Part shown: one piece after another, positions 13,593 through 40,558 of the stretch
Layout: each line of letters begins with the position of its first letter
Numbering within the stretch: position 1 is the stretch's first letter
DNA from: an uncultured Alphaproteobacteria bacterium
Lineage (GTDB): Bacteria; Pseudomonadota; Alphaproteobacteria; Acetobacterales; Acetobacteraceae
DNA: 64,000 nt
NCBI GenBank assembly: GCA_963696645.1
Contig: CAVOKY010000011.1
Span: forward strand, 470,858-534,857
Reading direction: 5' to 3'
Notes under the pieces: model-generated
What the model was told of the DNA's origin: nothing
Database searches by the model: none
The model's input: the letters and a program-made list of their open reading frames with translations, nothing else
Position numbers and translations under genes: made by a program

Positions 13593-15050
13593 ATGGAAAC
13601 GTTGCAAGCTACCACCGATACCGGCGCCTTGACCGCACGGATCGCGGCACTGATTGGCGCGGGGCGCCCGGCGGCAGCCCGACCTCTGCTGACAGCGGTG
13701 CGCCGGCGTTCAGCGCCTTCGCCATATCTCGCGGAACTGGCCACGCGGCTCGCGCTGTGCGAGGGGCGCAACGAATTGGCCCTTCAGGAAATAAGTAGGG
13801 CTATCGAGCTGCATCCTGGTCACGCCGGCCTGCATAAATGCCGAGCCGATGTCCGCATGCTGATGAACGACTGCGAAGGCGCGGCACGAGACGCGGCGGA
13901 AGCGGTAATACTCGACAGCGGTGATCCTGCGGCCAAGGCACTCCTCGGCCTTCTGATGTTGGAACTCAAACGTCCCGCCGACGCAATCGCATGCCTCAAC
14001 GAGGCGGTTTTCACCGACCCGTGCAATGCCGTCTATCGCCAGGGCCTTGCTGCCGCACAGGAAGCGAGCGGAGATACAGACGCAGCGCTTGCCACACTCG
14101 ACGCCGCAATCGCAGCCGCGCCCGCCTGCGTGGAATTGCGCAATGCCGCCATCCTGCTGTTGGTTCGGCGGCGCGATTTCACCGCCGCCTACCGCCTCGG
14201 TGAGGCGTCCCGCGTCGCCGGCGTGGCGGATGCATGCTCATTCGGCCTCATGGGCCATGCGCTTTCCAGCCTCGGCCGCCACGCCGAAGCCGAGGACGCC
14301 TATGCCGACGCGCTCAAGCTTGGACCCAACGACCCTTATGTGCGCCACCTCGTCGCCTCCTCGGGTATCGTATCGGGCGCCGCCCGCGCACCCATTGAGT
14401 ATTTGCAGGTCGTGTTTGATGGCTATGCCGATCGCTTCGAAAGCCACATCATCTCACTAGGCTATCGCATCCCGGGCCTGGTCCGGGCGACACTCATGCA
14501 GCACCCCAAGATCGTGGCCGGACAGCGTCTTGGGCCCGTGCTCGATCTCGGCTGTGGTACCGGACTGTTGGCTGTCGTCCTCTCGGACATGGCCGTCGGC
14601 CCGTTGGTCGGCGTCGATGTGTCTACGGGCATGCTTGCTCAAGCAGCGGCCAAGCACCTCTATTCGGAGTTGCACGAGGCTGACCTTATGCGGCTGCTCG
14701 CAGACGATCCAACACGATGGCAGCTCGTGCTGGCGGCCGACGTGTTCATCTACTTCGGCGCCTTGCCGGAGATGCTGGCGGCCGTGCATGCGCGATTGGA
14801 GCCAGGCGGCTGGTTCATCTTTTCCTTGGAGGAATTGCTTCCCGACCACGACGGTATCGTGCATGGCAACGGAGACTGGGCACTCCAGCGGATGGGCCGC
14901 TACGCGCACAGCATGTCCTACGTCTCCCGCGCGGCACGCGACGCCGGTTTTGCCGTCCGGACGCTGGAACGTCAGACCGTGCGACATGAGGCGGATGCAG
15001 AGGTCGCCGGCATCTACGTCGTGCTGGAGCGCGTCCGCCATGACGGCTGA
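13593..15050 (+). CDS. TPR-repeat protein fused to a class I SAM-dependent methyltransferase
   Basis: SD AAGGAG. The N-terminal half is TPR-like (AIELHPGHAGLHKCRADV..., LNEAVFTDPCNAVYRQGLA...). The C-terminal half has motif I VLDLGCGTGLLAVVL, then VGVDVSTGML, LVLAADVFIYFG and GGWFIFSLE. The reading frame is intact. Confidence 0.8.
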   Translation: METLQATTDTGALTARIAALIGAGRPAAARPLLTAVRRRSAPSPYLAELATRLALCEGRNELALQEISRAIELHPGHAGLHKCRADVRMLMNDCEGAARDAAEAVILDSGDPAAKALLGLLMLELKRPADAIACLNEAVFTDPCNAVYRQGLAAAQEASGDTDAALATLDAAIAAAPACVELRNAAILLLVRRRDFTAAYRLGEASRVAGVADACSFGLMGHALSSLGRHAEAEDAYADALKLGPNDPYVRHLVASSGIVSGAARAPIEYLQVVFDGYADRFESHIISLGYRIPGLVRATLMQHPKIVAGQRLGPVLDLGCGTGLLAVVLSDMAVGPLVGVDVSTGMLAQAAAKHLYSELHEADLMRLLADDPTRWQLVLAADVFIYFGALPEMLAAVHARLEPGGWFIFSLEELLPDHDGIVHGNGDWALQRMGRYAHSMSYVSRAARDAGFAVRTLERQTVRHEADAEVAGIYVVLERVRHDG

Positions 15051-17403
15051 CGCGGCGCTTGCGCTGCTGAATGCCGGTGATGCAGCCGGCGCGCTTGCCT
15101 TGCTGGACGATGCGGTGCCGCCTGGTGAGCCCGATACCGCGTGGCTCGTGGCAAGGGGCATGGTGCAACTCGCGAACGACCATCCAGCAGAAGCACTGAC
15201 CGCGCTGCGGACAGCAGTCGCGCTCGGTGACACGATGCCAGCGACATTGTTGAATCTGGCACTGGCGGAAGACAAGGCTGGCGACCCGGCACGCGCTCGT
15301 CACCTTATGGAGGCGCTCGAGCACCACCTTCCAGAGTGGGACGAGCCGCCATTACGGCTCGCGGAATCCCTGCGCGCCGCGGCTAAATTCCATGACGCCG
15401 AACTGGCCTACGGCCGCACGCTCGAGATCAACCCTCGCCGCGAGGCTGCGCTTCTGGGTTTGGGCGGCCTGTTGATCATGCGCGGCGAGGCCGAGGCTGC
15501 ACGCAAACTGCTGTTGCGCTGCTGCGACATCGCACCCGCGCGCGCCGAAGCCTGGGATACGCTCGGTCGTGCATTGATGCAGACCGACGACAAGCCCCTC
15601 GCTGAAGCGGCATTTGCCGAGGCGCAACGTCTGTCACCGCATACGCTGGAATATGCGCTGCATCGGGTCGGTGCCGCGCTCGCTGCTGGAACGGGCGAGC
15701 CTCTCCTGGCCTGTCTGCTGTCCGCCGCCGACAATGATCCGCTGAATCCGGCACTGCCCACGGCGCGCGGTGTCCTGCTGGAAAGATTGGGTCGACGATC
15801 CCAATCTATCGATGCACTGGAAACGGCAGCAGCCCTGGCGCCCGAAGCGCAGCTGCCAGCGGCGCTGCTCGGCGAATTGCTCGCCCGAGCCAACCGCCTG
15901 GATGAGGCAGAAGCCACGCTACGACATGCCATCGAACTGGATCCCGGCAATCACCATCTCGCCAACGCCCGCGCCACTGTGCTGTTCCGCATGCAACGTC
16001 ACGCCGATGCACGCGCCGAACTGCTTGCATCGATCGAGCGCAACGGCGAGCAGGTGACCGAACTGTGCCAATCTTGCCAATGCCACCACATGCCTCGGCC
16101 TGCAGCAGGAGGGGGTCGCCCTGGCGCGGCGCGCCATCGCGCTCGCCCCGGAGGCAACGCTGCTGCGGCGCATACTGTGCAACGCGCTGCCGTATCGCGA
16201 TGGTATCACTGGCGCCGAAATGCTTGCCGCGCTGCGTGAGTGCTCCGACCGGCTGCCGCGCGACCATACTGCCGGTGTTCGCCAACGATGCCAAACCCGG
16301 ACCGCCCGCTCGTCATCGGCCTGCTGTCGGGTTCGCTGCGGATCCATCCGGTGGGCTGGCTGACCGTCGCCGGGTTCGAGACGCTCGATCCCGCGGCCTT
16401 CACCCTCGTCTGCCTGGCGCAGAACGGCTCGCATGACTGGATCGCCCGCCGCTTTCGCGACTCTGGCGACGCGAATGGCATGACGTCGACATGCTCGACC
16501 GACCCGGCTGCTTGCGGCGAAGGCGCGCGACCTCGGGATCGATGTCCTGATCGATCTCGGCGGCTATGGCGACTCGGCGCGCATGACGGCCTGCGCCTAT
16601 CGCCTGGCACCGGTGCAGGTGAAATGGGTCGGCATGCAGAACCACAGTTCCGGCCTGGCGGAAATGGACTGGATCATCACCGATCGCTGGGAAACGCCGC
16701 CGGAGCTGGAGCATGTCTACTCCGAGCGCCTGCTGCGGATGCCGGACGGCTACGTGTGCTACAGCGCGCCGCCCTATGCGCCGGACGTCGTGCCATTGCC
16801 GGCACTGGCCAACGGCCACATCACCTTCGGCTGCTTCAACAACCTGGCGAAGATCACGCCCCGCGTCATCGCCACCTGGTGCACCATCCTGCATCGGCTG
16901 CCGGACCGCACGCCTGGTGCTGAAGACCCACCAGTTTGCCCATGCGCCGACCGCCGAACGCGTGCTGGCCGAGTTTGCCGCACACGGCATCCCACCAGCG
17001 CGGCTTGACCTGCGAGGTGGCTCGGCGCACCGGGCCTTCATGCGCGAGTACAATGACATCGACATCGTGCTGGACCCGTTCCCCTATTCCGGCGGCCTGA
17101 CCACCTGCGAGGCGCTGTGGATGGGCGTGCCGACAGTGACTGTTCCCGGCGAGATTTTCGCCTCGCGCCATTCGGTGAGCCATCTGAGCAACGCCGGCCT
17201 GGCCGACTGGGTGGCCGCCGACCTTGCCGCCTACGTGGAACTTGCCGTGGCGCGGGCCTCCGACATTCCGGCGCTGGCTGCGCTGCGATCCGGCTTGCGC
17301 GCGCGGGTCAAGGCGAGTCCGCTGTGCGATGCGCCGCGCTTCGGCCGCAACCTCGGTGCCGCGCTGCGCCATCGCCTGGCAGGAGTGGTGCGCCGGACAA
17401 TGA
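15040..17403 (+). pseudogene. FlmG-like TPR + GT41 (SPINDLY/O-GlcNAc-transferase-like) glycosyltransferase, multiply frameshifted
   Basis: ATG 15040 overlaps the upstream stop. The TPR region is intact to about 16065 (ORF 14530..16239). The glycosyltransferase domain is then split over ORFs 16065.., 16240.., 16583.. and 16713... Recognisable pieces include DRPLVIGLLSGSLRIHPVGWL, YRLAPVQVKWVGMQNHSSGL, GHITFGCFNNLAKITPRV, IVLDPFPYSGGLTTCEALWMGVPTVT and AWQEWCAGQ* ending at 17403. I count at least 6 frame changes, near 16068, 16255, 16300, 16460, 16905 and 17370. Confidence 0.7.
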
Positions 17404-17436
17404 CGCTGATCGACCGCAGTAGCAGGAGCAGCACAG

Positions 17437-18527
17437 ATGACCGCGCTGCCTTCCGTCGATGTCAATATGATGGTCTACAACAGCGTCGATACGGTCGGCG
17501 CGGCCATCGACTGCGTGCTGGCGCAGACCTGGCCGGCCGTGACGCTGACGCTGTTCGACAACTGGCTCGACCGATGGCACGGTGCAGGTGCTGCGGGACT
17601 ATGCCACGCAGCATCCCACGATCCGCATCAAGCAGCAACCGCTGCAACGCCGGCCCGATCGCCAACATCCAGCGCGCATTCTGGTTCGGCGACGCCGACT
17701 ACGTCATGCCGAAAACCAGCGATGACCTGATCGCGCCCGACTACATCGAGCGGCTGATGGGCGTGCTGCTGCGCCTACCCGGACTGCGCGATGTGCCACG
17801 CGGCGGGCCTGGTGTTCACCGGCGCCAACCAGGTCGGCTACCGCTACCCGCCGGAGCATTGGTTGGAAGCGACCGGGCCCGACCCGGTGGCGCGCGCCCG
17901 TCACGTCATGCAGCGCTACACCAGCGCGCCGGCGTTCTGGGGCGTCTACCGGCGCGACGCCGTCGATCAGCTCTCGACCATCCGCTATCGCTCCGGCTTC
18001 GATCACGCCGTGCTTGCGGAACTGGCGCTGTACGGCGAAATCCGCCACGTGCCCGAGCCGCTGTATCTGGCGGCGCGGCGGCGGCAAGCCGGTGATGCTG
18101 CTTGCACGCGGCGCCACCGAGCAGGCCAATCGCGGCGTGCCGCTCGATGATGTGCTGGCGGAACAGCGCTGGCGCACGCCCCTGATCACCACCGCCTATG
18201 CGCATATGGAGGTGTTCGCCGCGGCGCGGCTGCCGTTGCCGCAGCGTCTGTTGCTGCTGGAATCCGTGCCGGAGATATTCCGCGCCCGCTGGCTGTCGTT
18301 GATGCAGCGCGAGGTGCGGATCTTTGCGCGCGGCTCTGCCGGAGTTGCTGCGAGTGATTTCGATTGCCGAGCCCGTCGAAGCCAACTGGCTGGCGCGCGC
18401 GCTGATCGAGGTCCTGCTCGGCGCGCAGGCGATTCTGCCCGAGGAGGATCTGACCCTCGCACTGCTCGAGGTCGCCGCCCTGGCTGGTGAGACACGTCTA
18501 CCCACGCCGGTCGATGTCGCTCGGTAG
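17437..18527 (+). pseudogene. family-2 glycosyltransferase, multiply frameshifted
   Basis: The N-terminus SVDVNMMVYNSVDTVGAAIDCVLAQTWPAVTLTLFDN is a GT2 signature. It continues in other frames as GSTDGTVQVLRDYATQHPTIRI, FWFGDADYVMPKTSDDLIAPDYIERLMGVLL, AGLVFTGANQVGYRYPPEHW...FWGVYRRDAV and ...LALLEVAALAGETRLPTPVDVAR*. I count at least 4 frame changes. Confidence 0.65.
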
Positions 18528-18672
18528 CGGACTTGCTATCCCGGCCATCAGTCCCGGCCAACTGTCGAGGTCGTGTGCCGCTGTCGACGGCCGGAACCCT
18601 GCCCGGCCATGACAATGTTGCGCGGTTTCATCCAGGTCCGGTCGGATTCCCAATGGCCAGCGACGACCGCTG

Positions 18673-19047
18673 CTACTTGACGCCGTGTCCCTTCGATGGC
18701 GCCGCCTGCACCTGCGGCCTGACCACCGGTGCCACTTGGACCGGCGGCGACGCAATGCTTGCTCCAGGAGGTGCTGGACCTATATGCGCTGTGGCCCATC
18801 TCTGGTAGGCCTCAAGCTGTCGTTGGCTGGGAACCGACGTGCTGACGCCGCCGGTGTCGTTGCGGAATTCGATCACCACCAGGCCGAGGCGGCTGTCAAA
18901 CCGCAGGGTCGGATTGTAAATTGGCGGCGACTTCGCCACAGACTCCGGCTGCGGCGAGGGTTGCACTGCCGCCGCAATTGCCCCGCCACCCGCATCGTTG
19001 GCAGAGCGCGCGGGAACGATTGACTGAACGCTGATATCGCTTGACAT
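18673..19047 (-). CDS. flaG: flagellar protein FlaG
   Basis: LRFDSRLGLVVIEFRNDTGGVSTSVPSQRQLEAYQRW is the FlaG-family core. ATG 19047 is preferred over GTG 19059. Confidence 0.75.
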   Translation of the reverse strand: MSSDISVQSIVPARSANDAGGGAIAAAVQPSPQPESVAKSPPIYNPTLRFDSRLGLVVIEFRNDTGGVSTSVPSQRQLEAYQRWATAHIGPAPPGASIASPPVQVAPVVRPQVQAAPSKGHGVK

Positions 19048-19114
19048 GGCGGAATTCACCGCAAACTTTGCGCCGTTCTGGCGCTGGGGATTTGCCGATC
19101 ATCCACCGTATCGG

Positions 19115-19591
19115 TTAAGCCTCCGTTAAGCCCCTCTCACCAGCACGATCGCTTCCACTTCCACCGCAATATTGCGCGGCAGGCTGCCCATGCCGACCGC
19201 CGACCGTGCCGGCCGCCGCCGGCTCGCCGAGCACCTGGACGAACAGGTCGGTGCAGCCGTTGATCACCTCGGGATGCTGGGTGAAATCCGGCACCGCGTT
19301 CACCATGCCAAGCACCTTCAGCACCGTATCCACACGCTCCAGCGTGCCAACTGCGGCGATCATGTTGACCAGCAGGTTGAGCCCGCACAGCTTCGCCGCC
19401 TCATAAGCCTGCTCCACCGAGACATCGGCACCGACCTTGCCGGTGATCATCGTTTCGTTTGCGCGCCGCGGTCCGACGCCGGACAGGAACAGCAGATTGC
19501 CGGCCAGCCGGAACGGCACGTAATTGCCGATCGGTTTCGGCGGCGACGGCAGCGCCAGGCCGAGATCCGCTAGGTTTTTGTCAGCACTCAT
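19115..19591 (-). CDS. RidA/YjgF family protein, C-terminus displaced by one frameshift
   Basis: IGNYVPFRLAGNLLFLSGVGP...VEQAYEAAKLCGLNLL...GCTDLFVQVLGE is RidA-like. After about 19225 the canonical ending SAVGMGSLPRNIAVEVEAIVLVRGA* (stop 19126-19128) lies in another frame. The start overlaps the upstream stop (ATGA). Confidence 0.7.
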   Translation of the reverse strand: MSADKNLADLGLALPSPPKPIGNYVPFRLAGNLLFLSGVGPRRANETMITGKVGADVSVEQAYEAAKLCGLNLLVNMIAAVGTLERVDTVLKVLGMVNAVPDFTQHPEVINGCTDLFVQVLGEPAAAGTVGGRHGQPAAQYCGGSGSDRAGERGLTEA

Positions 19592-21024
19592 CGGATTCCC
19601 TCCTGATCGGTGGGTTCACTGGGCAGCCTGCGACACCGTGCCCGCCGCTCCAGCAGCGCGCTCAGGTCCGCCACCTTGCCGACCGTCTCGATCCTGCCGA
19701 GCAGATCGAACAGCGGCGCGATTTGGCCGGCGCGGCAAGGCGCGCCTGGCGCAGTCTTCGAACTTCTCCCACAACTCCTCGCGTGCTCATCGGCGCGCCG
19801 CCGGGACCGCGCCGCTCGAAATCATCCAGCCGCGAGGCCAGGCGTTGGCCGTCGCGCGTCGTCACCACCACTTCGGCACCCCATTGCAGCGGTGACGCAT
19901 CCGGCATGTCGGGGTGCTCCCGCGCCTCCGTGCGCGCCATCAGCGCGCGGATTGCCGGGTCGAAATGCGCGGTCGCCCTCGAAATGATCCAGCCGCACGG
20001 CGCGGTCGGCCAAGCGCACGTGCCACCGCGTATTGGATGCTGAATTTCGGCGCCCAGTGGCGTGCGCGGGTCGGGGTTGTCGGTGTGTGGCAGGCGGCGG
20101 GCATGCGGCATGATCTCGATCTTCGCCACGCGATCCGGCGTCAGGTCGTGGGTGCGCGCGAAGATGGATCATGCGGTTGATCGAGGCATGCGTGCTGCCG
20201 CAGCACGGATACGGCTTCAGCCCTGGCTCGCCACCGCCTTCGACCTCCAGCGGCGCATACCAATCGGTCGAGGATGCGGTCGGTGTCGTAGGTTCCCGGC
20301 CCGTTGAACACGTCGAGAAATCCCTGCCGATGTTCCAGCGCGGCAGGATTGGCGGTGAAGCCCTGCCTGCACCATCAGCGCCGCGAACAGGCCGTTACGC
20401 GCGGTATGACCGACATGCAGCGGCTTGGTCATGGTGCCGAAATTCGCCTTGAGCCCGGATGCCAGCGAGGCGGCCAACCCCAAGTGCCATTGCGGTCTGG
20501 TCCGGCGTGAAGCGCAGCAGCCGCGCCGCTGCCGCAACGGTGCCGAAGATGCCGAGTGTCGCGGTCGGGTGCCAGCCCTTGTCGTAGTGATGGAAATGCA
20601 CGCCGCGCGCGATGCGGCATTCGGTTTCGAAGCCGACGACATAGGCCAGCGCAAGCTCGCGCCCGGTGCAGCCAAGCTGCTCACCGAGAGCCAGCATCGC
20701 CGGGATCAGCGTCACCGATGGATGCCCACCCAGCGTGCCGGATACATCGTCATAGTCCAGCGCGTGCGACGCTGTGCCGTTGACCAGTGCCGCGTCGAGC
20801 GCACTGGTGCGCCGGTCGCTGGCGAAGATCAGGCTGGGCCCTGGCGCGGTGGCGATGCCCGGCACTTCCATCAGGATGCGCGGGCCGTCCTCCACGATGC
20901 CAGCAAGCGTGACGCCGACCGTGTCGATGAATGCGGCGCGGGTCCAGTCGAGCGCAATGGGCGTAAGGTCTTCGTAGCGCAGGCGATGGATGCGATCGGC
21001 GATCTGGAGCGCGAGCGAAGTCAT
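19588..21024 (-). pseudogene. MmgE/PrpD family protein, paralogue 1, multiply frameshifted
   Basis: ATG 21024 (MTSLALQIADRIHRLRYEDL...). Recognisable pieces are DAALVNGTASHALDYDDV, HFHHYDKGWHPTATLGIFG, LKANFGTMTKPLHVGHTARNG, KPYPCCGSTHASINRMIHL and PDASPLQWGAEVVVTTRDGQ. They are spread over ORFs 20395.., 20217.., 19822.. and 19662... I count at least 5 frame changes. Confidence 0.75.
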
Positions 21025-21068
21025 CCGCGGGGTTCCTTGGCGATAGACCCCCTCCGCAACCCTCCCCC

Positions 21069-21110
21069 GCTTCGCGGGAGAGGGGCGCTGAACTCCCTCT
21101 CCCGCGAAGC
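21069..21110. repeat. intergenic inverted repeat / hairpin (GCTTCGCGGGAGAGGGG ... TCCCTCTCCCGCGAAGC)
   Basis: A 16-17 bp stem with an 8-nt loop, lying between the stop of the flavoprotein gene (21158) and the start of PrpD paralogue 1 (21024). Confidence 0.6.
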
Positions 21111-21157
21111 TGGATTGCTTGGCGAGGGGGTGCGTTCCGTCGCACATACAGTCTCCA

Positions 21158-22642
21158 TCATCCCGCTTCCGCCGCTGCATTGCGCCCGGCAATCCGGCCG
21201 AACGTTGCACCTGAAACCAACCCGGTGCCCGCCGGATAATTGTCGTAGAACAGCCCGCCGATCATCTCGCCGCACGCATACAGCCCCTTCAGCGGCCGCC
21301 AATCCGTGGCGATCACCTGCGTCTTGTCGTTCACCTTCAAGCCACCAAACGTGAAGGTGATGCCGCCCGTCGCGCTGTACGCATAGAACGGCGGCTTCTC
21401 CAGCCTGATGCCCCAGTTGGTCTTCTCCGGCGACAGGCCGCGCGTGGAAATCCCGTCCTTCTTCGTCGGATCGAATCCATCGCCGGCATCGCGCGCCGCC
21501 GCGTTGAACCGATGCAGCGTCCTGATCGCCTGCTCGCGATTGTCGATGTCGATCAGCCCGACCAGTTCCTCCAGCGTGTCCGCCTTGATCGGCTTGCTGG
21601 TGGAATAGCGCGGCTCCAGCAGATGCACGACCTGCTGGTCGAAGATCTGCCAGGCCATCGCGCCCGGCTGCGCCAGAATCGACCGCCCGAACTTCGCATA
21701 GGTGAACAGGTTGGTGTCCTCGCCCTCATCAACGAAACGAAACCCCTGGCGGTTGATCATCACGCCGTAAACGTAGCTCAGCCGGTTGCTCTTGTCGGTC
21801 AGTTCGCGCGGCGCGAACTCGCCCCAGTCGGCGCTGATCGGCGTGGAGTGGCAACCGCTGTACTGCCCCCACGGCATTGCGCCGACCGCGAACGCCATGC
21901 GCAGCCCGTCGCCCTGGTTGTGCGGCGTGCCGCGCACCTTCGCCTGGCCGACCAGCGGCCCAATATGCTGAGTGCGCATCTGCACATTTGCCTCGAAGCC
22001 GCCGCACCCCAGCACCACAGCCTTCGCCGTCAGCTCCTTGATCCCCTCGTCATCGCGCAGCTTCACGCCGCAGATGTGGCCGCGCTTGTCCACCAGCAAT
22101 TCGGTCACCGCGCTGGAATAGCGGATCTCCACGCCCTCGCGCTCCGCGATGTCGAACCAGGAATTCGACAGCCCGACGCCCTCATGCGCGGCGCGCACCA
22201 CCATGCCCGGCGGCCAGTACCAAACATTGCCGCGCTTCACGCCGGCAACGCCGAGCGCGGGCTCCATCGGCACACCCTTCTCATGCATCCAGAACACCGT
22301 GTCGCGCGAGTTCGACACCAGGATATCGGTCAGTTCCGGATCGGCGCGGCCCGATGTGACGCGCATCAGGTCGCCGAGGTATTGCGATCGCGGATACGGA
22401 TTGATGCCGGAATAGAAATCCTCGAACCGCTCCTCGATGCCGGGCAGCAGCGGCGCGATCTCCTTCGGGTCATCGAACGCGAAGCGCAGGATGGCGCCGC
22501 TCCAATAGGTGTTGCCGCCGCGCATCGCGACCGGCGCCTTTTCCAGCGCCACCACGCGCTGCGCACCGTGTTCCCGCGCGGACACCGCGGCGGCAAACGC
22601 CGCATTGCCGGCGCCGACAACGATCACGTCATAATCGGGCAT
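21158..22642 (-). CDS. FAD-binding dehydrogenase (fumarate-reductase/succinate-dehydrogenase flavoprotein-like; TcuA-like)
   Basis: N-terminal dinucleotide fold YDVIVVGAGNAAFAAAVSAREHG. Also LGCGGFEAN, and C-terminal GLYACGEMIGGLFYDNYPAGTGLVSGATFGRIAGRNAA. The overall pattern resembles tricarballylate dehydrogenase TcuA as I recall it. The frame is intact. Confidence 0.75.
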   Translation of the reverse strand: MPDYDVIVVGAGNAAFAAAVSAREHGAQRVVALEKAPVAMRGGNTYWSGAILRFAFDDPKEIAPLLPGIEERFEDFYSGINPYPRSQYLGDLMRVTSGRADPELTDILVSNSRDTVFWMHEKGVPMEPALGVAGVKRGNVWYWPPGMVVRAAHEGVGLSNSWFDIAEREGVEIRYSSAVTELLVDKRGHICGVKLRDDEGIKELTAKAVVLGCGGFEANVQMRTQHIGPLVGQAKVRGTPHNQGDGLRMAFAVGAMPWGQYSGCHSTPISADWGEFAPRELTDKSNRLSYVYGVMINRQGFRFVDEGEDTNLFTYAKFGRSILAQPGAMAWQIFDQQVVHLLEPRYSTSKPIKADTLEELVGLIDIDNREQAIRTLHRFNAAARDAGDGFDPTKKDGISTRGLSPEKTNWGIRLEKPPFYAYSATGGITFTFGGLKVNDKTQVIATDWRPLKGLYACGEMIGGLFYDNYPAGTGLVSGATFGRIAGRNAAAEAG

Positions 22643-22661
22643 TGCGTTTCTTCCCCTTCGA

Positions 22662-24032
22662 TCAGGCGCCGGTTCCGACCAGTGCCATCAATTCGCTCAC
22701 CTGTGGCGGTGCCAGCGTGTCGATCCGTGACGCCAGCGCAATGCAGCGCTCCACCGCATCACTGTGCAGCCGCGTTGCCAGACAATCGCGGACCTTGACC
22801 AAATGGTCCAGCGTCGGCGATCGGCGGCTGGCCCCACATGCCGCGCGGTCCGTCGCAACGCGTCTCCAGTACGCGCCCATCAGCCAGCTCGATCGCCACC
22901 ACCACATGCATCGTCTCGAACCGCGCCGGGATCGACTTGTCCATGCGCAGCATGATCTTCGGCAGCAGCGCCTGCATGTCCGGGTGCGTGCAGGCGGGCT
23001 TCGGTGAACGTGCCGATGCCGACCTTGCCGTCCAGCAACGCGCTGGCCAGCGTGTATTGCAGGCTGAATTTGCCCGACAGTCCGGTGTCCGGTTGCGGCC
23101 GATCGACATAGGCCATCTGCGGCGCGGTCAGCGTCACCGACCGGATCGCCGCCGCATCGGGAATCCGCGGCTGCAGTGTCCAGCCCGGCGGTGATGACGA
23201 AATGCGTGCCGAACTGGCTGGGAAACATCTTGATCGCATAGCCCGGCCGCACCACGCGCCACGGCGCCTGCCCGAACTTCCGCAACTCGTCCGGCATGAA
23301 CGTGCCGCGATGGAACGTTGCGGCGTAGCCCTGCGGCGATTCGAAGGTTGCCGCATCGCCGGTGAAGCCGGCTTCCGCCATCAGCGCCGCCTCCAGCCCG
23401 AGCGAGCCCGCCTGGCCGCAATGCGTCGACTTGGTCATCGTGCCGACATTGCCGAACACGCTGCCGGCGCGCGACGCCGCAATGCCGAATGCATTCGCCA
23501 GCCGCTTCGCATCGAGTCCGAGCAGATGGCCCGCGGCAGCAACCGCGCCCATCGGACCCACCAATCCTGGTGGATGGAACTGCAAAACATCGGGTGTGAA
23601 CTGGCCGGACGCCTCGCGCAGCCAGCCCTGGATTTCGATGCCCTTCACCAACGCGGTCAGCACCTCGCGTCCGGATGCACCGCGCGCTTCTGCCAACCGC
23701 AAGCGCGACCGGCAACGTGGTGGACAGCGCGTGCGTCGCCGGACTCCACATCGGCTCGAAGTCCAGCACGTGCATCGCCGCATCCATTCAGCGCCGCAGC
23801 ACGAACCGGGTCGATGCGGAATCCGCAACCAATGGCGGTGCACAGCGGATCGCCGCCAAGCCTGCGGTAATGCGCGGCCATGATCGGGATCGCGTCCTCC
23901 TCCACCGCACCGGCCAAGCGCGACAGCCAGCCCATCCAGCACCAGCCTGCGCGCCGCAGCCACCGCTTCCGCCGGCAGGTCTTCGAAGCGCGCAGCGGCG
24001 ACGCGTTCGCACAATTCAGCGGTCAGGCCCAT
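22662..24032 (-). pseudogene. MmgE/PrpD family protein, paralogue 2, multiply frameshifted
   Basis: ATG 24032 (MGLTAELCERVAAARFEDLPAEAV...). It continues in other frames as AGAVEEDAIPIMAAHYRRLGG, MHVLDFEPMWSPATHALST, GNVGTMTKSTHCGQAGSLGLEAALMAEAGF and WRVVRPGYAIKMFPSQFGTHF. The C-terminus ends at 22662. I count at least 4 frame changes. Confidence 0.75.
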
Positions 24033-30747: not shown

Positions 30748-30840
30748 CCCGGTCCCCCAAGGGATCTTCCTATCCCCGAACCGCCCCGCAGGCAAAGCGG
30801 CGGCCGGCCGGGGATGCCGGCGGGGATTATGCCCAGGGGC

Positions 30841-31356: not shown

Positions 31357-31540
31357 GCGTGCCGGATGCCTTTCTGGGTGGGAAGCCGCCAAGGGATGTA
31401 GAACGCTGACGTGGCGGCCGCAACAAATGCCGATCGGACCGGATATCCCGGTTGCGTGGGCCGTTGATATTATCCGCCCGCATGTCGGGCTGCGGCTTGC
31501 TCGTTCGTCCTGAGAGATGGTGCAGCCGAAGGAGTGACAA

Positions 31541-31906
31541 ATGCTCTACGCGATTCTTTGCTATCACAATGAAGATGTCGTCAGTGCCTGGAGCAGGGAA
31601 GAGGATGCCGCCGTCCTCGCGAAGCGCGCGACGGTCACACGTGGCCTGGCCAGTGCGGGGAAACTCGGACCTGTCGCTCGCCTCATGCCGACGACCGCGG
31701 CGGTAACCGTAAGGTCGGGCAACGAGCCGCTTGTCATCGACGGCCCGTTCGCCGAGACCAAGGAACAGCTGCTCGGCTTCTACATCGTTGATTGCGCGAC
31801 ACTCGAGCAGGCCATCGAAATCGCCGGTCGAATGGGACATGGTGAATCGGGCGCACTCGAGATCCGGCCGGTGCGCCTGTTCGAGCCAGGCAGTGACGTG
31901 GCGTGA
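31541..31906 (+). CDS. YciI family protein
   Basis: [14 protein letters not shown]...[31 protein letters not shown] is a YCII/DGPF-type domain. Its stop overlaps the GTG start of the sigma-factor gene (GTGA), a usual pairing. Confidence 0.8.
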
Positions 31907-33156
31907 CCGACTTCGCCTGGATTGACACCGCGCTGAAGTCCGCTCGGCCCCAGGCGACCGACGCGCTGCTGCGCTACTTCCGTGATCTCGACCAGGCCGA
32001 GGAAGCCTTCCAGGAAGCCTGTCTTCGCGCGTTGAAGAGCTGGCCCATCAACGGTCCGCCGCGTGATCCCGCCGCGTGGCTCATCCTGGTCGGGCGCAAC
32101 GCTGAGCTCGACGATGTGCGTCGTCGCAATCGGCACGAGCCACTGCCGCCTGAGGAAGTCGTGTCGGATCTCGACGATGCCGAAGCGGATCTCGCGGAGC
32201 GGCTCGACAGCTCGCGCTATCGCGACGACATGCTGCGCCTGCTGTTCATCTGCTGCCATCCCGAGCTGCCGGCAACTCAGCAGATCGCGCTTGCGCTGCG
32301 CATAGTTTCGGGGCTTTCGGTGAGCGAGATCGCGCGCGCATTCCTGGTCAGCGAGACCGCCATGGAGCAGCGGATCACCAGGGCGAAGCGCCGCATCGCG
32401 CAAGCACAGTTCCCGTATGAAACGCCAGGCGCGATCGAGCGGAGCGAACGGCTGGCAGCGGTTGCGGCGATGATCTACCTGCTGTTCAACGAGGGCTATT
32501 CAGCGAGTGGCGGCACCGCACACATCCGCGTGCCGCTGTGCGAGGAGGCCAACCGGCTCGCTCGTCTGCTGCTTCGGCTGTTCCCGACCGAACCCGAGAT
32601 CATGGGCCTGACTGCGCTGCTTCTGCTGCAACATGCGCGCGCGCCCGCACGGCTCGATACCGACGGCGAGATTGTGCTGCTGGAAGATCAGGACCGTGGC
32701 CTGTGGCATCACGACATGATCGGTGAGGGACTGACGCTGGTGGAAAAGGCGCTGCGGCATCGGCGTCCGGGCACGTATCGGGTGTAGGCCGCGATCGCCG
32801 CACTGCATGCGCGCGCGGCGCGGTTCGAGGACACCGACTGGGGCGAGATCGATCAGCTCTATGCCGTGCTGGAGAGGTTGCAGCCGTCGCCGGTGGTGAC
32901 ACTCAACCGCGCCGTTGCGGTCGCCCGATTGCATGGCCCGGCGGCGGCGCTGGCGATGATCGAGCCGCTCGCCGCGCAGCTTGCCGGCTATTTCCATTTC
33001 TTTGGCGTAAAGGGCGCGCTGCTCACGCAACTGGGGCGCACCGCGGAGGCGCGCACCGCCTTCGACCAGGCCATCGCGCTGGCGCTTACTCCGGCCGAGG
33101 CCGCGCACATCCGGCTGCATCTCGATCATTTGACCAGACAGAACCCACCGGCGTGA
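31903..33156 (+). pseudogene. ECF-type RNA polymerase sigma factor (YciI-associated, long C-terminal domain) interrupted by an in-frame TAG
   Basis: Region 2 is AEEAFQEACLRALKSWP...PAAWLILVGRNAELD. Region 4 is LRIVSGLSVSEIARAFLVSETAMEQRITRAKRRI. ORF 31903..32787 and ORF 32866..33156 are in the same frame. They are separated only by TAG 32785-32787, within ...GTYRV*AAIAALHARAARFED, where relatives as I recall have PYQ(L/V)QAAIAA. Confidence 0.7.
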
Positions 33157-33276
33157 TGGCGCGGCGCCGCGCGCGCCGCACTAGAAAAATCGGCGTCGCT
33201 GTCGGATCGCTGCCGGTTCGTGCGTCCTTGGTTTGCGAACCCGTCCAGCAATGCAGCAACCGAAGGAGATGCATCG

Positions 33277-33696
33277 ATGCGTTTCATGATCATCGTCAAG
33301 GCCAACAAGGACAGCGAAGCGGGCGTGATGCCGAGCCGCGAACTGCTGACCGAGATGGGCAAGTTCAACGAGGCGCTGGTAAAGGCCGGCATCATGCTCG
33401 CGGGCGAGGGCCTGCAGCCAAGCTCGAACGGCGTGCGCGTCAGCTTCCCCGGCGGCAGGCTGACTGTCACCGACGGCCCGTTCCCCAACGCCAACGAGCT
33501 GATCGCTGGGTTCTGGCTTTGGCAGGTGAAGTCACGGGACGAGGCCCTCGAGTGGCTACGGCGTAGCCCGTTCGGCGAGGGGGCCGAGCTCGAGGTCCGC
33601 CGGGTGTTCGAGGTGGAGGATTTCGGCGGTGAGCTGACGCCCGAACTCAAGGAACAGGAACAGCGTCTGCGCGCGCAGACGGCCAACAGGCAATAA
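33277..33696 (+). CDS. YciI-like (DGPF domain) protein
   Basis: MRFMIIVKANKDSEAGVMPSRELLTEMGKFNEALVKAGIMLAGEGL...VTDGPFPNANELIAGFWLWQVKSRDEALEW. ATG 33277 has an upstream GGAG. Confidence 0.75.
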   Translation: MRFMIIVKANKDSEAGVMPSRELLTEMGKFNEALVKAGIMLAGEGLQPSSNGVRVSFPGGRLTVTDGPFPNANELIAGFWLWQVKSRDEALEWLRRSPFGEGAELEVRRVFEVEDFGGELTPELKEQEQRLRAQTANRQ

Positions 33697-33729
33697 TTCG
33701 CGGCACGTCCGCAGCAACAGGAGAATGCG

Positions 33730-34143
33730 ATGCAACTGAACTCGTATCTGCATTTCGCTGGCGAATGCGAATCGGCCATGCAGTTCTATGCGAAGGTGCT
33801 TGGCGGCGAGATCGTCGCGATGATGCGCTATACAGGCTCGCCGGCGGAACAGCATGTGCCCGCCGAATTGCGCGACAAGATCATGCATGCCCGGCTGATC
33901 GTGGGAGACAAGGTGCTAATGGCGTCCGACGTGCCGCCGGATCGGTATGATGCGATGAAGGGCTTCGCCGTGACGCTGGGCATCGACGAACCGGCCGAGG
34001 CGGAGCGCGTGTTCCATGCGTTGGCGGACGGTGGAACGGTGCGGATGCCGATCCAGCAGACCTTCTGGGCCACGCGCTTCGGCATGCTGGTCGATCGCTT
34101 CGGCACACCATGGATGATCAACTGCGAGCAGCTGCCTGGGTGA
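33730..34143 (+). CDS. VOC/glyoxalase-fold protein (PhnB/YjdN-like)
   Basis: MQLNSYLHFAGECESAMQFYAKVLGGEIV...IMHARLIVGDKVLMASD...IQQTFWATRFGMLVDRFGTPWMIN is the typical PhnB-like pattern. Confidence 0.75.
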   Translation: MQLNSYLHFAGECESAMQFYAKVLGGEIVAMMRYTGSPAEQHVPAELRDKIMHARLIVGDKVLMASDVPPDRYDAMKGFAVTLGIDEPAEAERVFHALADGGTVRMPIQQTFWATRFGMLVDRFGTPWMINCEQLPG

Positions 34144-34188
34144 AAGGCCCGCGGCCGCGTGGGGCGGAAAGGCGCAGCGCGCTCCGCC

Positions 34189-35073
34189 CTACGCAGCTCC
34201 AAGCACGCGCCCTGCCACCGCGTCCAGCTTGGCGACCAGGCTGGGATCGCGCATGTGGCTGGCGGTGATGATCGCGTTGTCCAGCGCCCGGTCGCAGCCG
34301 GCCGGGCACAGATCTCGCGCGGCTGGCCGATCTCGGGCACGACGTGCTCGCACCAAGGCCCGCGCCTTGTCGGCGTTGTCGAGCAGCACGCGCACCACCG
34401 CCTCGACCGTGACGTGGTCGTGGTCGGGATGCCAGCAGTCGAAATCGGTCACCATCGCGACGGTCGCGTAGTTCAAAGCTCGGCCTCGCGCGCGAGCTTG
34501 GCCTCCGGCATGTTGGTCATGCCGATGACGCTGCAGCCCCAGGACCGGTACAGCTCGCTCTCGGCCTTGGTGGAGAATTGCGGCCCTTCCATCACCAGAT
34601 AGGTGCCGCCGCGCGTCACCGGCAGACCCAGCCCGCTGCGCCGCCGCTTCCAGCGCATCGCCGAGGCGCGCGCACACCGGATGCGCCATCGACACATGCG
34701 CCACCACGCCCTCGCCGAAGAAGCTCTTCTCGCGCGCGAAGCTGCGGTCGATGAACTGGTCGACGATGACGAAATGCCCCGGCGGCAGTTCCGGCTTCAG
34801 GCTGCCGACCGCGGAGAGCGACAGCACGTCGGTGACGCCGGAGCGCTTCAGCGCATCGATGTTGGCGCGATAGTTCAGATGCGTCGGCGACAGCGGATGG
34901 CCGCGCCCGTGTCGCGGCAGGAACACGCAGCGCACGCCGCCCAGCCGGCCGAACAGCAGCGCATCGGACGGCGTGCCCCACGGCGTGGCGACCTGCCGCC
35001 AGGCCTTGTCCTCCAGCCCGTCGATGTCATACAGGCCGGAGCCGCCGATGATGCCGATGACGGGCTGGATCAT
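34189..35073 (-). CDS. mtnP: S-methyl-5'-thioadenosine phosphorylase (ORF open, but with two internal out-of-frame segments)
   Basis: [17 protein letters not shown]...[27 protein letters not shown] and [24 protein letters not shown] are canonical. The conserved block [50 protein letters not shown] lies in a different frame (ORF 34473..34697). [10 protein letters not shown] (about 34300-34330) is also displaced. Confidence 0.8.
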
Positions 35074-35103
35074 GCCAACCCCCTGTCAGGGGGGCGCGTC
35101 ACC

Positions 35104-35876
35104 TCAGTGCACGTCCGACCAGACCTTGCGCTTCACCGCGTAGGTCAGGCCGGTCATGCAGCAGCAGGAACAGCACCACGCGCCAGCCGATCTGCTTGCG
35201 CTGGACCAGTTCCGGATTGGCGGCCCAGGCCAGGAACGTCACCACGTCGTGCGCCTCCTGCTCGACCGATGTTCGGCGTGCCGTCGGCGTAGGTCACCTG
35301 CCCGTCGTGCAGCGGCTGCGGCATGGCGATCTGATGGCCGGGGAACATACTTGTTGTAGTTCATCCCCGTCCTGCATCTTGAATCCCGGGCGGCGCATCG
35401 GCGAAGCCGGTCAGGATGGCATAGACGTAGTCGGCGTGGCCCTCGCGCGCATTGACGATCAGCGACAGGTCAGGCGGCAGCGCGCCGTTCAGCGCCGCGC
35501 GCGCCGCCTTCTCGTTGGGGAAGGGCGAGCGGAACTGGCTGGCCGGCGTTGCCGGGCCGTCCTTCGGATTGCCCTGGTCGTCCGACGCCCTGCGGCACCG
35601 TGACCGCGGCGGCGATCGCCTTGATCTGGTCCGTCGGTCAGGCCGATGCCGGCAAGGTCGCGGTAGTGCAGGTACTGCATCGAATGGCAGGCCGAGCAGA
35701 CCTCGGAATACACCTGGAAGCCGCGCTGCGCGGCCGCGAGGTCGAAGGTGCCGAACGGGCCGTCGAAGCTCCAATGCTGCGGCGGCGGCGATGGGCTTCG
35801 TCCTGTGCCCACGGCAGGCGACGCGCACGACGGCGGCGAGCAGCGCGGCGGCCAGAAGCTGACGCAGCGCGCGCAT
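35104..35876 (-). pseudogene. petC: cytochrome c1 (ubiquinol-cytochrome c reductase subunit), multiply frameshifted
   Basis: ATG 35876 overlaps the petB stop (TGATG). The pieces are [15 protein letters not shown] (signal), [36 protein letters not shown] (CxxCH heme motif, ORF 35489..35812), [42 protein letters not shown] and LTYAVKRKVWSDVH* ending at 35104. They lie in different frames; I count at least 5 frame changes. Confidence 0.8.
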
Positions 35877-37152
35877 CACGCCTTCTCCATCGGCTTGGCG
35901 GCGGCACCGGACGGCATCGGCCCGCCGCCGCCGCCGATGACCGGACGGCTGATGCTCTCCGGCAGCGGCAGCGGGCGCTCCAGCTTGCCGAGGATCGGCA
36001 GGATCACCAGGAAATGCAGGAAGTAATACAGCGTGCAGACGCGGCTGAGCACCACCCAGATGCCCTCCGGCTTGTGCGCGCCGCAGATGCCCAGCACGAT
36101 CACCGCGGCCACCCAGACCCAGATCAACTGGCGGATAGATCGGCCGGAACCGCGCGCTGCGCACCGGCGAGGTGTCCAGCCAGGGCAGCACGAACAGGAT
36201 CAGGATCGAGCCGAACATCATGCACACGCCCAGCCAGCTTGTTCGGCACCGAGCGCAGGATCGCGTAGTACGGCAGGAAGTACCACTCCGGCACGATGTC
36301 GGCCGGCGTCTGCAGCGGATTGGCCGGGATGAAGTTGTTCGGATCGCCCAGGAAGTTCGGCGCGAAGAACACCAACGCGGCGATACACGATCAGGAACAC
36401 GCAGATGCCGACGCTGTCCTTCACCGTGTAGTACGGGTGGAACGGCAGCGTGTCCTGCGGCGACTTCACGTCGATGCCCAGCGGGTTGTTCGAGCCGACG
36501 ATGTGCAGCGCGGCGACATGCAGGAACACCACGCCCACCAGCACGAACGGCAGCAGGTAGTGCAGCGAGAAGAACCGGTTGAGCGTCGGGTTGTCGACGC
36601 TGAAGCCGCCCCACAGCCAGGTGACGATCGGCTGGCCGACGATCGGGAAGGCGGAGAACAGGTTGGTGATGACGGTGGCGCCCCAGTAGGACATCTGGCC
36701 CCAGGGCAGCACGTAGCCCATGAACGCGGTCGCCATCATCAGCAGCAGGATCACCACGCCGAGCATCCACAGCAGCTCGCGCGGCGACTTGTAGGAGCCG
36801 TAGTACAGGCCGCGGAAGATGTGGATGTAGGTGACGATGAAGAACATCGACGCACCGTTCTGGTGCACGTAGCGGATCAGCCAGCCGTAGTTCACGTCGC
36901 GCATGATGTGCTGCACGGAGTCGAACGCGAGCTCGGTGTTCGGCTGGTAGTTCATCGCCAGGAAGATGCCGGTGGCGATCATGATCGTCAGGGTCACCAT
37001 CGCCAGCGCGCCGAAATTCCAGAAGTAGTTGAAGTTCTTCGGCGTCGGGAAGACCGCGTATTCCTTCTGCATCATCGTGAAGATGGGCAGGCGGGTGTCG
37101 ATCCAGTTGATCACCGGATTGGTGAAGTCGCTCTTGGTGCATGGCCGGCCAT
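35876..37152 (-). pseudogene. petB: cytochrome b (ubiquinol-cytochrome c reductase subunit), frameshifted
   Basis: The core is in ORF 36218..37114 ([16 protein letters not shown]...[41 protein letters not shown]...[15 protein letters not shown]). It continues in ORF 36124..36375 ([40 protein letters not shown]). Next comes the frame of ORF 35361..37400 ([27 protein letters not shown]), then ORF 35876..36127. I count 4 frame changes, near 37136, 36375, 36235 and 36125. The 37136 change looks like AAA shortened to AA in ccaaagagc. Confidence 0.85.
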
Positions 37153-37186
37153 GGCGGAATTCCGGTCGATTGCGGGCTGGCGCGCG

Positions 37187-37758
37187 TCAGCCGAGCTTGA
37201 TCTTGGTGTCGGATTCGAACGCGTAGGGCGGCAGGCACAGGTTGAGCGGTGCCGGCCCGTGGCGCACGCGGCCCGAGGTGTCGTACTGGCTGCCGTGGCA
37301 GGGGCAGAACCAGCCGCCCCAGTCGCCGCGCGGATCGGTCGGCTTGTTGCCCAGCGGAACGCAGCCGAGATGCGTGCAGATGCCGATCAGCACGATCCAC
37401 TGATCGTGCCCGGCCTTGACCCGCGTCGGAGTCGGTCTGCGGCTCGATAAGCTGCGACAGCTGGCACGTCCTCGGCTGACTTGATCTCGGCCGCCGTGCG
37501 GTGGCGGACGAAGATCGGCTTGCCCTGCCAGACGACGGTGATGCCCTGGCCCTCGGCGATCGGGCGTCAGGTCGACCTCGACCGAGGACAGCGCCAGCAC
37601 GTCCTGCGACGGGTTCATGTAGTCGATGAAGCGTCCAGGCGATCGCCGCGGTGCCGATGGCCGCGCCGGCGCCGGTGACCAGTTTCAGGAAATCGCGTTT
37701 GGTGACGTCGGCGGGATGGCCGTGGTGCGGCGGCGGCAGCAGACGGATCAGCCATCAT
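37187..37758 (-). pseudogene. petA: Rieske iron-sulfur subunit of the cytochrome bc1 complex, frameshifted
   Basis: The intact C-terminal half is [24 protein letters not shown]...[27 protein letters not shown], carrying both Rieske boxes (CTHLGC, CPCHGS). The N-terminal pieces lie in other frames: [50 protein letters not shown] and [27 protein letters not shown] count at least 4 frame changes. Confidence 0.8.
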
Positions 37759-37954
37759 TCCCCTCGATACGATCGCAACGCCGGCATGGCGCGGGACGCA
37801 CCAAACCGCGGACGGACCCGCGCGGCCTGCCCGGAATTCAACCCCAGACGACCGGACCCGGCCGCGGACGGCGCGCATATTAGGGTCGTGCCCGCACCCC
37901 TGCAACACGCGGCCGGCACGGGCTACCCTACGAAACTGCCAGGAACAAGCCCCC

Positions 37955-38862
37955 ATGCCGCAATCCGCCACGGAACACGTTGCACCGCCGCCACATCTCG
38001 CGCTGAAACAGCCGGCCCGGGCCTGGTTCGAGACGCTGCGCGACCGGCTGTGCGCCGCGTTCGAGGCGATCGAGGACGCGCAGGACGGCCCGCTGGCCGA
38101 GCGTCCCGCCGGCCGGTTCAGCCGGACCGCATGGCAGCGGCCGACCCCGGACGGGTCGGACGGCGGCGGCGGCGTGATGAGCGTGATGCGCGGGCGGGTG
38201 TTCGAGAAGGTGGGGGTGAACGTCTCCACCGTCTGGGGCGAGTTCAGCCCGGAGTTCCGCGCGCAGATCCCCGGCGCCGAGCAGGATCCGCGATTCTGGG
38301 CCAGCGGCATCAGCCTGGTCGCGCACATGCAGAGCCCGCGCGTGCCGGCGGCGCACTTCAACACGCGGCATGCTGATCACCACGAAGGGCTGGTTCGGCG
38401 GCGGCGGCGACCTGACGCCGATGCGGCTCGACGCGCCGGAGGCGATGGCGGACGCGGCGGACTTCCACGCCGCGTTCAAGGCCGCCTGCGACCGGCACGA
38501 CCCGGGCTATTACCCCGAGTTCAAGGCCTGGTGCGACCGCTACTTCTTCCTGCCGCACCGCGGCGAGCCGCGCGGCGCCGGCGGCATCTTCTTCGACCAC
38601 CACTTCAGCGGCGATGCCGACGCGGATTTCGCCTTCACCCGCGATGTCGGGCCGGCGTTCCTGGACGTGTTCCCTCGCATCGTCCGCCGACGGATGGCGC
38701 GAGCCATGGACGGCGGACGAGCGCGAATACCAGTTGGTGCGTCGCGGGCGCTACGTCGAGTTCAACCTGATCCACGACCGCGGCACGCTGTTCGGCCTGA
38801 AGACCGGCGGCAATGTCGAGGCGATCCTGATGAGCCTGCCGCCCGAGGTGAAGTGGCCGTGA
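37955..38862 (+). pseudogene. hemF: oxygen-dependent coproporphyrinogen III oxidase, two frameshifts
   Basis: ORF 37955.. reads [17 protein letters not shown]...[31 protein letters not shown]...[23 protein letters not shown]. It then shifts near 38365 to ORF 38370.. ([16 protein letters not shown]...[19 protein letters not shown]). It shifts again near 38700 to ORF 38614..38862 ([47 protein letters not shown]). Confidence 0.85.
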
Positions 38863-38875
38863 CAGCCGTCACCCT

Positions 38876-38968
38876 GTCATTGCAAGGAGCGCAGCGACGC
38901 GGCAATCTCCCGCCAGTGCGGCCCAACTGGCGGGAGATTGCCGCGTCGCTGCGCTCCTCGCAATGACA
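38876..38968. repeat. near-perfect palindromic REP pair (about 41-bp arms, 10-nt loop) between convergent hemF and emrB
   Basis: The left arm is tgtcattgcaaggagcgcagcgacgcggcaatctcccgccag (38876-38916). The right arm is ctggcgggagattgccgcgtcgctgcgctcctcgcaatgaca (38927-38968), with one mismatch. It may act as a bidirectional terminator. Confidence 0.85.
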
Positions 38969-38988: not shown

Positions 38989-40558
38989 TTACCGCGGCCG
39001 GCCCGCAACACCTGAGCGGAACAACAGCGTCAGCGGCACGATGCAGAACGCGGCAACGGCCGTGTATGTATATAGATCCGTATAGGACAGGATCGCCGCC
39101 TGCTGGTTCAGCGTCTGATTGATGAGACCCATCGCCGCATCATGCGCGCCGGCAGCCGTCTGACCCATCGCCTCCAGCGCATGCGTGTCGTGCGACAGCA
39201 ACTCCTGGTACGGTTGATCGAACGCACCCAGATGGCCGGCAAGATAAGCGCGGTGCGCCTGCATGCGTTCCGCGCCCATCGCCGTGACGACCGCGATGCC
39301 GATCGAGCCGGAAATGTTGCGGAACATCGAATACAGCGCGGTGGCATCCGCGGTCAGCGAGCGCGGCAAGGTCGAATAGGACAGCGTGCTGTTGGGCACG
39401 AACAGGAACGCCAGCCCGATGGTCTGGAACGTGCGGAACATGGCCAGCGTCCAGAAATCCATCTGCGGCGTCAGCCGTGCGGCAAACGCCGACGAACACC
39501 CGAGGATGAAGAATCCGAACGCAATGACATAGCGCGTGGAGATGTTCGGCAGCACCACCCTGGCCACGACCGGGATGAACAGGATCATCACCGCGGCGCC
39601 CGGCGACAGCAGCAAGCCTGCCAGCAAGGCCGTGTAGCCGAACCATTGCTGCGCCATCACCGGGATCAGCACGTTGCTGGAGTACAGGATCGCGCCGATC
39701 CCCGACACCGTCACCACGCCGACGCCGAAATTGCGATCCTTCAGGCAGCGCAGGTTGACCACGGGCTTGTCGACCATCAACAGCCAGGCAGTGCCGCCGA
39801 CGATGCCCACCGCCGCCGAGCAGCGCAAAGATCCGGATGGTGGGGGAGCTGAACCAGTCCAGGTCCTCGCCGCGGTCCAGCATGATCTGCAGCGAACCCA
39901 GGCCGAGTGCGATCAACGCCAGTCCGCCATAGTCGATGTCGCGCAGATGCGCGCGATCGCGCTGCACCCAGGGCGGATCCTCGACCAGCTGCATCACCGA
40001 GATGAAGGCAAAGATGCCGACCGGCACGTTGATCAGGAACACCCAGCGCCATGAGTAGTTGTCGGTGATCCAGCCGCCCAGGGTCGGGCCGATGATCGGC
40101 GCGAAGATCACGGCGATCGCCACCAGCGAGAACGCCCGCGCACGCTGCGACGGCTCGAACGTATCGAGGATGACCGATTGCTGCGCCGGCTGCAGCCCGC
40201 CGCCGAACAGGCCCTGCAACAGCCGGAACACGACAAGCTCCGGCAGGCTGGTGGCGATGCCGCACATGAACGAGCAGACGGTGAACATCGCGATGCAGAT
40301 CAGGAAATACCGCTTGCGCCCGATCAGCCGACCCAGCCATCCCGCGACCGGCACGACGATGCCGTTCGCCACCAGGTAGGAGGTCAGCGTCCAGGTTGCA
40401 TCGTCATTGCTCGCCGACAGCGCGCCGGCGATGTTGGGCAGGCTGACATTGACGATGGTGGTGTCGAGGATCTCCATGAACGGCGCCAAGGTCGCCGCGC
40501 CGGCCACCAGCCAGACGCTGCCCCTGGGACGCCACGTCGCATCCAGCAGGTCGCTCAT
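38989..40558 (-). pseudogene. emrB: DHA2-family MFS multidrug efflux permease (EmrB/QacA-like), single frameshift near 39825
   Basis: The N-terminal 240 aa are in ORF 39140..40558 (ILDTTIVNVSLPNIAGAL...WRWVFLINVPVGIFAF...). The remaining TMs are in ORF 38989..39828 (LKDRNFGVGVVTVSGIGAILYSS...FRNISGSIGIAVVTA...). The junction is IRIFALL|AAVGIVGG. Confidence 0.75.

Follow-up and report, generated by a model that had tools for sequence, protein, structure and literature searches.

Errors in long-read assemblies are mainly homopolymer-associated indels (PMC12007338), and among the current sources of genomes such as those compared here are Nanopore-only soil metagenomes that were assembled with Flye followed by one round of Medaka (PMC12313526). 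In real bacterial pseudogenes and in mutation-accumulation lines, 0.76-0.94 insertions are found per deletion (PMC6054270). The window described here (the whole stretch of DNA that was analysed, 64 kb long with about 66% G+C) differs from both: fifteen of its genes are split by numerous small frame-breaking events that are nearly all additions and that spare homopolymers. From comparison with related sequences we consider it very probable that these frameshifts are sequencing or assembly consensus errors in the deposited sequence and not mutations in the organism.

Materials and Methods

Two relatives served for alignment of the left and middle parts of the affected stretch. L165, in which gene order is conserved, aligned over 7447-21017 (89% nucleotide identity) and 21157-26910 (95%), and L166 over 27045-31374 (79%). 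L001, L048, L003, L004, L006, and L007 were compared over 34150-38900. References for the mtnP-petCBA-hemF-emrBA genes were taken from these six and from L162 and L163.

The reading frame was decoded with a seven-state Viterbi model of codon usage, trained on long ORFs of the window with high GC3; it was used in place of a GC-by-phase frame plot, which was too noisy. Chaining of uncorrected blastx matches was swamped by spurious high-GC ORFs, and a filtered ORF set with a custom frameshift-aware aligner was used instead. The proteins P0436 and P0244 were set aside as references, both seeming to bear frameshifts of their own; P0245 and DNA alignments were used.

Results

The best relatives of the cytochrome b encoded in the window were metagenome-assembled genomes of Acetobacteraceae and Rhodopila (90-93% amino-acid identity), and the closest TcuA-like protein in the protein search was 95% identical. 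Exact look-ups of proteins of the window found no identical entry, and GTDB genomes, JGI metagenomes, and the protein searches yielded relatives of no more than 92-95% identity. The source genome is that of an Acetobacteraceae bacterium near Rhodopila.

DNA alignments to syntenic relatives, together with frameshift-aware protein-to-DNA alignment, located 61 frame-breaking events in 15 genes (Table 1). From 15047 to 40560, codon-usage decoding of the window gave about 50 switches of frame on the same strand; beyond these limits the decoded switches were gene ends only. The decoded pieces of the damaged genes translated into native-looking peptide segments. The initial annotation had listed at least 15 damaged genes, which is borne out, and had counted about 50 frameshifts where there are about 60. 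Compensating runs had been overlooked, such as a run of three in 75 nt of PrpD1, all +1, and one pair of events in the racemase gene. The left limit given there, 15040, is the start codon of the FlmG-like gene and lies upstream of the first event, at 16068. Two of its individual sites were right, about 25303 (an extra base in PrpD3, here an added G at 25301) and about 38365 (hemF, here an added base at 38367). The petB site at about 37136, read as a change of AAA to AA, is really a 2-nt addition near 37139.

Table 1. Positions in the window of the frame-breaking events, the patches that they form, and neighbouring features.
Feature	Position	Strand	Events	Details
Whole event span	16068-39817	.	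61	23,750 nt, 2.57 events per kb
FlmG-like TPR + GT41-type glycosyltransferase gene	15040-17394	+	8	First 1,028 nt clean, events in the remainder
Patch 1	16068-20484	.	23	Pairwise alignment to L165; protein-to-DNA alignment against P0245, P0391, P0395, and PrpD orthologues
Patch 1, FlmG-like gene	16068, 16267, 16299, 16460, 16471, 16507 (+2), 16903, 17371		8
Patch 1, GT2 gene	17564, 17636, 17772, 18067, 18317		5
Patch 1, RidA gene	19218		1
Patch 1, PrpD1	19732, 19782, 19974, 20012, 20048, 20160, 20270, 20366, 20484		9
TcuA-like flavoprotein gene, intact, between patches 1 and 2	21158-22642	-	0	494 aa, no indel relative to L165
Patch 2, PrpD2	22813-23914	.	6	All +1; L165 alignment (95% identity) and three independent PrpD references
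Patch 2, added bases	22813 G, 22980 C, 23174 C, 23693 C, 23781 C, 23914 C		6
Single added G close to the 3' end of PrpD3	25301-25301	+	1
Patch 3	27689-29137	.	7	L166 alignment and three-frame reading
Patch 3, aldolase gene	27689		1
Patch 3, 'PhtD-like' gene	27993/4 (+2 or -1), 28062, 28232, 28695		4
Patch 3, racemase gene	29088, 29137 (+2 or -1)		2
Longest event-free stretch in the span	29138-34311	.	0	5,175 nt, p = 2e-5
Sole in-frame stop, TAG in the ECF sigma gene	32785-32787	+		Downstream of the DUF6596 domain
Patch 4	34312-38698	.	23	Seven-sequence MAFFT alignment, restored ORFs, protein-to-DNA alignments
Patch 4, mtnP	34312 (+2), 34351, 34476 (+2), 34637		4
Patch 4, petC	35159, 35269, 35348, 35365, 35384, 35582, 35633; 35789, 35811		7-9	35789 and 35811 less certain
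Patch 4, petB	36135, 36234, 36382, 37139 (+2)		4
Patch 4, petA	37426, 37463, 37562, 37629		4
Patch 4, hemF	38367, 38698		2
Isolated +1 event in emrB, last of all	39817-39817	-	1	References from L162 and L001

Deletion of 67 nt in all turned each of the 15 genes into one ORF with no stop and restored full-length conserved proteins. Pfam domains were continuous over the repaired sites after shift correction; HpcH_HpaI and Asp_Glu_race, for example, ran uninterrupted across the corrected sites of patch 3. The product of the FlmG-like gene was 66-68% identical to P0244 and P0245 over its full length, and Glyco_transf_41 and TPR domains were found on its L165 orthologue.

We examined the direction of the events. 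Bases were added in at least 59 of the 61 (about 53 events of +1 and five to six of +2), the sign being ambiguous (+2 or -1) only at 27993/4 and 29137. The DNA and protein-to-DNA alignments gave no clear deletion among the 61 events, where natural pseudogenes should have at least as many deletions as insertions. The probability of so many insertions is below 1e-15 under equal rates and also under the natural insertion-to-deletion ratio of 0.76-0.94. Five apparent deletions ('win_del' at 16535, 24766, 27383, 27793, and 30052) were reassigned to errors in L165 or L166, since at these positions the window is in frame and it is the relative's gene, in L165 or L166, that is split. This insertion-only spectrum speaks against real, very recent pseudogenisation, by which natural indels would have inactivated 15 genes of a stretch now decaying, since deletions prevail in real pseudogenes and indel sizes vary. 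Large deletions and IS insertions were also absent from the stretch.

The same direction was seen in public assemblies of related bacteria. L162 and L163 both represent one population, and their cytochrome b is identical. Compared with L162, L163 shows eight single-base additions and lacks one base; its emrB, hemF, and ABC genes are split, those of L162 not. L165 and L166, too, have their own frameshifts, with extra bases predominating. In the three contigs with Flye-style names (L163, L165, and L166) extra and missing bases stand at about 12 to 2. The error spectrum of the window is one-sided and platform-like, and its direction is shared by these three. One of the L166 frameshifts joins the racemase gene to the next gene and has given rise to the database protein P0436.

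The added base was G or C in 25 of the 29 events that could be resolved against L165 (G+C of the region 66.6%, p = 0.015), and it matched a neighbouring base in only nine of the 29, against an expected 55% (p = 0.009). The span has 19 homopolymers of at least 5 nt, and no event fell in any of them. The homopolymer association typical of Nanopore and HiFi data is therefore missing; this speaks against a platform error of the homopolymer type, though not against a technical origin in general. The non-textbook profile with its spared homopolymers does count against attributing the extra bases to the consensus.

The 29 base-resolved sites had no common motif by eye, and neither a restriction site, as a cut followed by end joining might leave, nor a methylation motif was seen at them. 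Substitutions were not enriched within 1-3 nt of the insertions. A consensus that kept both alleles of a SNP was considered in this connection and is neither supported nor excluded. These sites bear also on a real, localised burst of insertion mutagenesis, which would have struck patches of one 24-kb stretch shortly before sampling, by end joining with untemplated addition, error-prone repair synthesis, or an insertion-prone repair polymerase. Addition of single nucleotides without a template is known to mark Ku/LigD end joining in bacteria, and a burst fits the insertion-only direction, the unchanged dN/dS (see below), and patches that cross gene borders. It is opposed by the lack of a common motif and of insertion-linked substitutions. 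It would further call for some 60 breaks or slips, each independent, within 24 kb and none in the surrounding 40 kb, and it would have disabled the bc1 complex and 12 other genes simultaneously.

The events were significantly clustered (variance/mean 2.1-2.5, p about 1e-5), reaching about five per kb inside the two largest patches. The initial annotation had described clustering gene by gene; the clustering stands, and the gene-wise part does not. The events form four physical patches. These extend over both strands and several genes (four or five in each of the two large patches), and their edges cut through the FlmG-like, PrpD1, aldolase, and racemase genes. In PrpD1, nine events lie within the 3' 0.75 kb and the 5' 530 nt is free. 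Such edges within genes and patches over several genes would be expected from a property of sequence support, not from selection on gene function. GC content was rejected as an explanation of the patches, which match the clean flank on the right in GC (0.69-0.70).

For natural decay it may be said that the events are clustered rather than uniform and that many of the damaged genes are plausibly dispensable (PrpD paralogues, glycosyltransferases, emrB). Gene-wise clustering and dispensable genes were the earlier arguments for pseudogenisation, and they fail on the intragenic patch edges and on petABC and hemF, which are as badly damaged as the accessory genes, the conserved respiratory genes petABC being among the worst hit.

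We next compared selective constraint on hit and clean genes. Relative to L165, dN/dS was 0.09-0.19 for shift-corrected hit genes or gene parts and 0.05-0.20 for clean neighbour genes. PrpD2, with six hits, differed from L165 by 1.1, 1.4, and 9.9% at codon positions 1, 2, and 3, and the intact TcuA gene by 0.8, 1.9, and 9.7%. Judged by these substitutions, the corrected genes are under the same normal purifying selection as their intact neighbours. Neutral drift long enough for six to nine indels in a gene should bring tens of position-blind substitutions and several stops. The genes with six to nine frameshifts found here lack these extra substitutions, constraint was not relaxed, and a single in-frame stop occurred in the stretch.

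That stop, a TAG in the ECF sigma gene already reported in the initial annotation and confirmed at 32785-32787, is the one real-looking nonsense codon on the side of decay. It stands against 61 frame-breaking events, and its gene has no frameshift. On the whole evidence, we regard very recent pseudogenisation as highly unlikely.

No frame-breaking event was found in the flanks of 16 and 24 kb; the initial annotation had claimed this for 12 kb on the left and 23 kb on the right. In the left flank, whose ORFs are intact flagellar genes, all indels between 7447 and 16067 relative to L165 were in frame (a multiple of three) or intergenic. On the right, emrA and the ABC gene aligned free of shifts, and the genes farther right gave single-frame matches to distant relatives. 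Flanks as perfectly clean as these also count against an error in the consensus. Within the span, alignments upheld the report of clean interleaved genes for the TcuA-like flavoprotein (95% identical to P0121, which one source names tricarballylate dehydrogenase), PrpD4, the 'TctC-like' gene, and apt. The longest event-free stretch holds the 5' part of the racemase gene, the 'TctC-like' gene, apt, YciI, ECF sigma, and YciI/VOC.

Discussion

The frameshifts very likely arose in the making of the consensus. The lean of the initial annotation towards technical indel error is strengthened by insertion-only events outside homopolymers, unrelaxed constraint, near-absent nonsense codons, and up to nine hits in a gene. 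Spurious extra bases would have been retained by the assembly consensus in four patches with thin or inconsistent support. Read support in the patches was probably thin, and the producer of the extra bases may have been a long-read-type consensus; the span of 23.75 kb is about the length that one long read or one gap fill would have. The clean flanks would have to be explained locally, for example by a drop in coverage, a filled gap, or a mixture of strains. We name no platform, since the profile differs from the textbook homopolymer one. The genes under these errors are almost certainly intact, as far as the restored reading frames and their conservation tell: a flagellin-modification module, a PrpD/TcuA-type organic-acid cluster, mtnP, petABC, hemF, and emrB.

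Beside natural decay, the burst of insertion mutagenesis set out above appears less likely still, and we know of no description of such a pattern. Recoding, in which the genes would be expressed by programmed frameshifting, transcriptional slippage, or RNA editing, could account for the wholly native-looking and conserved corrected peptides, but it is the least credible explanation of all: no slippery or stimulatory motif is common to the 61 sites, all of which are outside homopolymers (and the 29 base-resolved sites likewise show neither), the extra bases are absent from the orthologues in relatives, and the pattern is limited to one stretch of the genome and not to a class of genes.

An error of the consensus, our preferred explanation, has consequences for the use of this record. 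Read at face value, it would give some 15 false pseudogenes and protein fragments by the dozen, and it would wrongly imply the loss of the bc1 complex, coproporphyrinogen oxidase, and the flagellin-modification module. Public metagenome proteins taken as references may contain the same errors, as the apparent racemase fusion P0436 exemplifies. Indel direction and shift-corrected dN/dS are two quick, read-free tests that tell such an artefact from real decay. The finding carries little biological weight, since the genes are almost certainly unharmed; its weight lies in data quality, and the record needs repair.

Compared with known systems, the window resembles pseudogene decay in leaf-nodule Burkholderia and Mycobacterium leprae in that neighbouring genes each have several frameshifts. 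Real decay brings more deletions, a range of indel sizes, nonsense codons, and relaxed constraint (PMC6054270), however, and the window shows none of this pattern. Collapsed haplotypes or strains offer a second parallel, as apparent frameshifts vanished on separation of variants in the allele-specific assembly of Trypanosoma brucei (PMC8445201), and a strain mixture limited to the stretch would account for the clean flanks; in the window, however, no trace of mixed alleles was found, substitutions not being enriched beside the insertions.

The closest likeness is to indel errors in the consensus of long-read assemblies (PacBio CLR or Nanopore), where indels of one to two bases break conserved genes, errors lie where support is poor, and full-length proteins reappear on correction against relatives (PMC12007338). 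The same excess of extra bases is seen in public contigs of related Acetobacteraceae that have Flye-style names. Textbook errors of this kind are homopolymer-associated and often deletion-rich, whereas those of the window spare homopolymers, include no deletions, and are confined to four patches, the rest of the 64 kb being flawless. From these comparisons, the frameshifts are most likely not a biological feature but a gene-fragmenting kind of error already described for long-read assemblies, and the present case stands out only by its restriction to insertions, to sites outside homopolymers, and to patches.

Frameshift errors and length differences

Public metagenome contigs of related bacteria (loci L166, L165 and L163) carry frameshift errors of their own. 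The database protein P0436, derived from L166, is an artefactual fusion of the racemase and its downstream gene and includes a long stretch in the wrong frame. The FlmG-like gene of L165 is broken into 578 + 220 aa, and emrB and hemF are both split in L163. P0006, a 577-aa database protein with Rieske and cytochrome b domains, may be an artefact of similar kind.

The gene labelled 'PhtD-like' in the initial annotation has a stretch of approximately 40 nt, made up of 13 codons and the frameshifting base, that is missing from L166. Here a variable loop appears to differ naturally in length, with an error on top. The GT2-RidA intergenic region contains a 49-nt segment missing from L165, with small length differences nearby; these look like natural variation.

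An in-frame TAG lies in the ECF sigma gene (domains Sigma70_r2, Sigma70_r4_2 and DUF6596), within the longest event-free stretch. Homologous sigma factors probably have CAG (Gln) at this position. The TAG could be either a substitution error or a true nonsense mutation.

Gene clusters

Features in the window and in related loci
Feature	Window	Related locus
Flagellin-modification candidate	13593-18524	L165 6174-11086
49-nt intergenic segment	18553-18601	
Small intergenic length differences	18643, 18670, 19120	
PrpD/TcuA cluster	19136-29700	L165 11648-19706; L161
'PhtD-like' ~40 nt	28062-28101	
ECF sigma TAG	32785-32787	
P0436 fusion		L166 10001-11653
Broken FlmG-like gene		L165 7621-9973
Split emrB and hemF		L163 7173-8481

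Immediately after the flagellin, FlbT and FlaF genes, genes for a TPR-methyltransferase (485 aa), an FlmG-like TPR-GT41 protein (∼783 aa) and a GT2 (361 aa) follow in this order, which is kept in L165. The three likely form a flagellin-modification module.

The conserved PrpD/TcuA cluster comprises four MmgE/PrpD paralogues, a TcuA-like flavoprotein, RidA, an HpcH/HpaI aldolase, an Asp/Glu-racemase-family gene, and the 'PhtD-like' and 'TctC-like' genes, both without a Pfam match. The cluster appears to be an uncharacterised island for organic-acid catabolism, and in L165 it is followed by an IS (DDE_Tnp_1).
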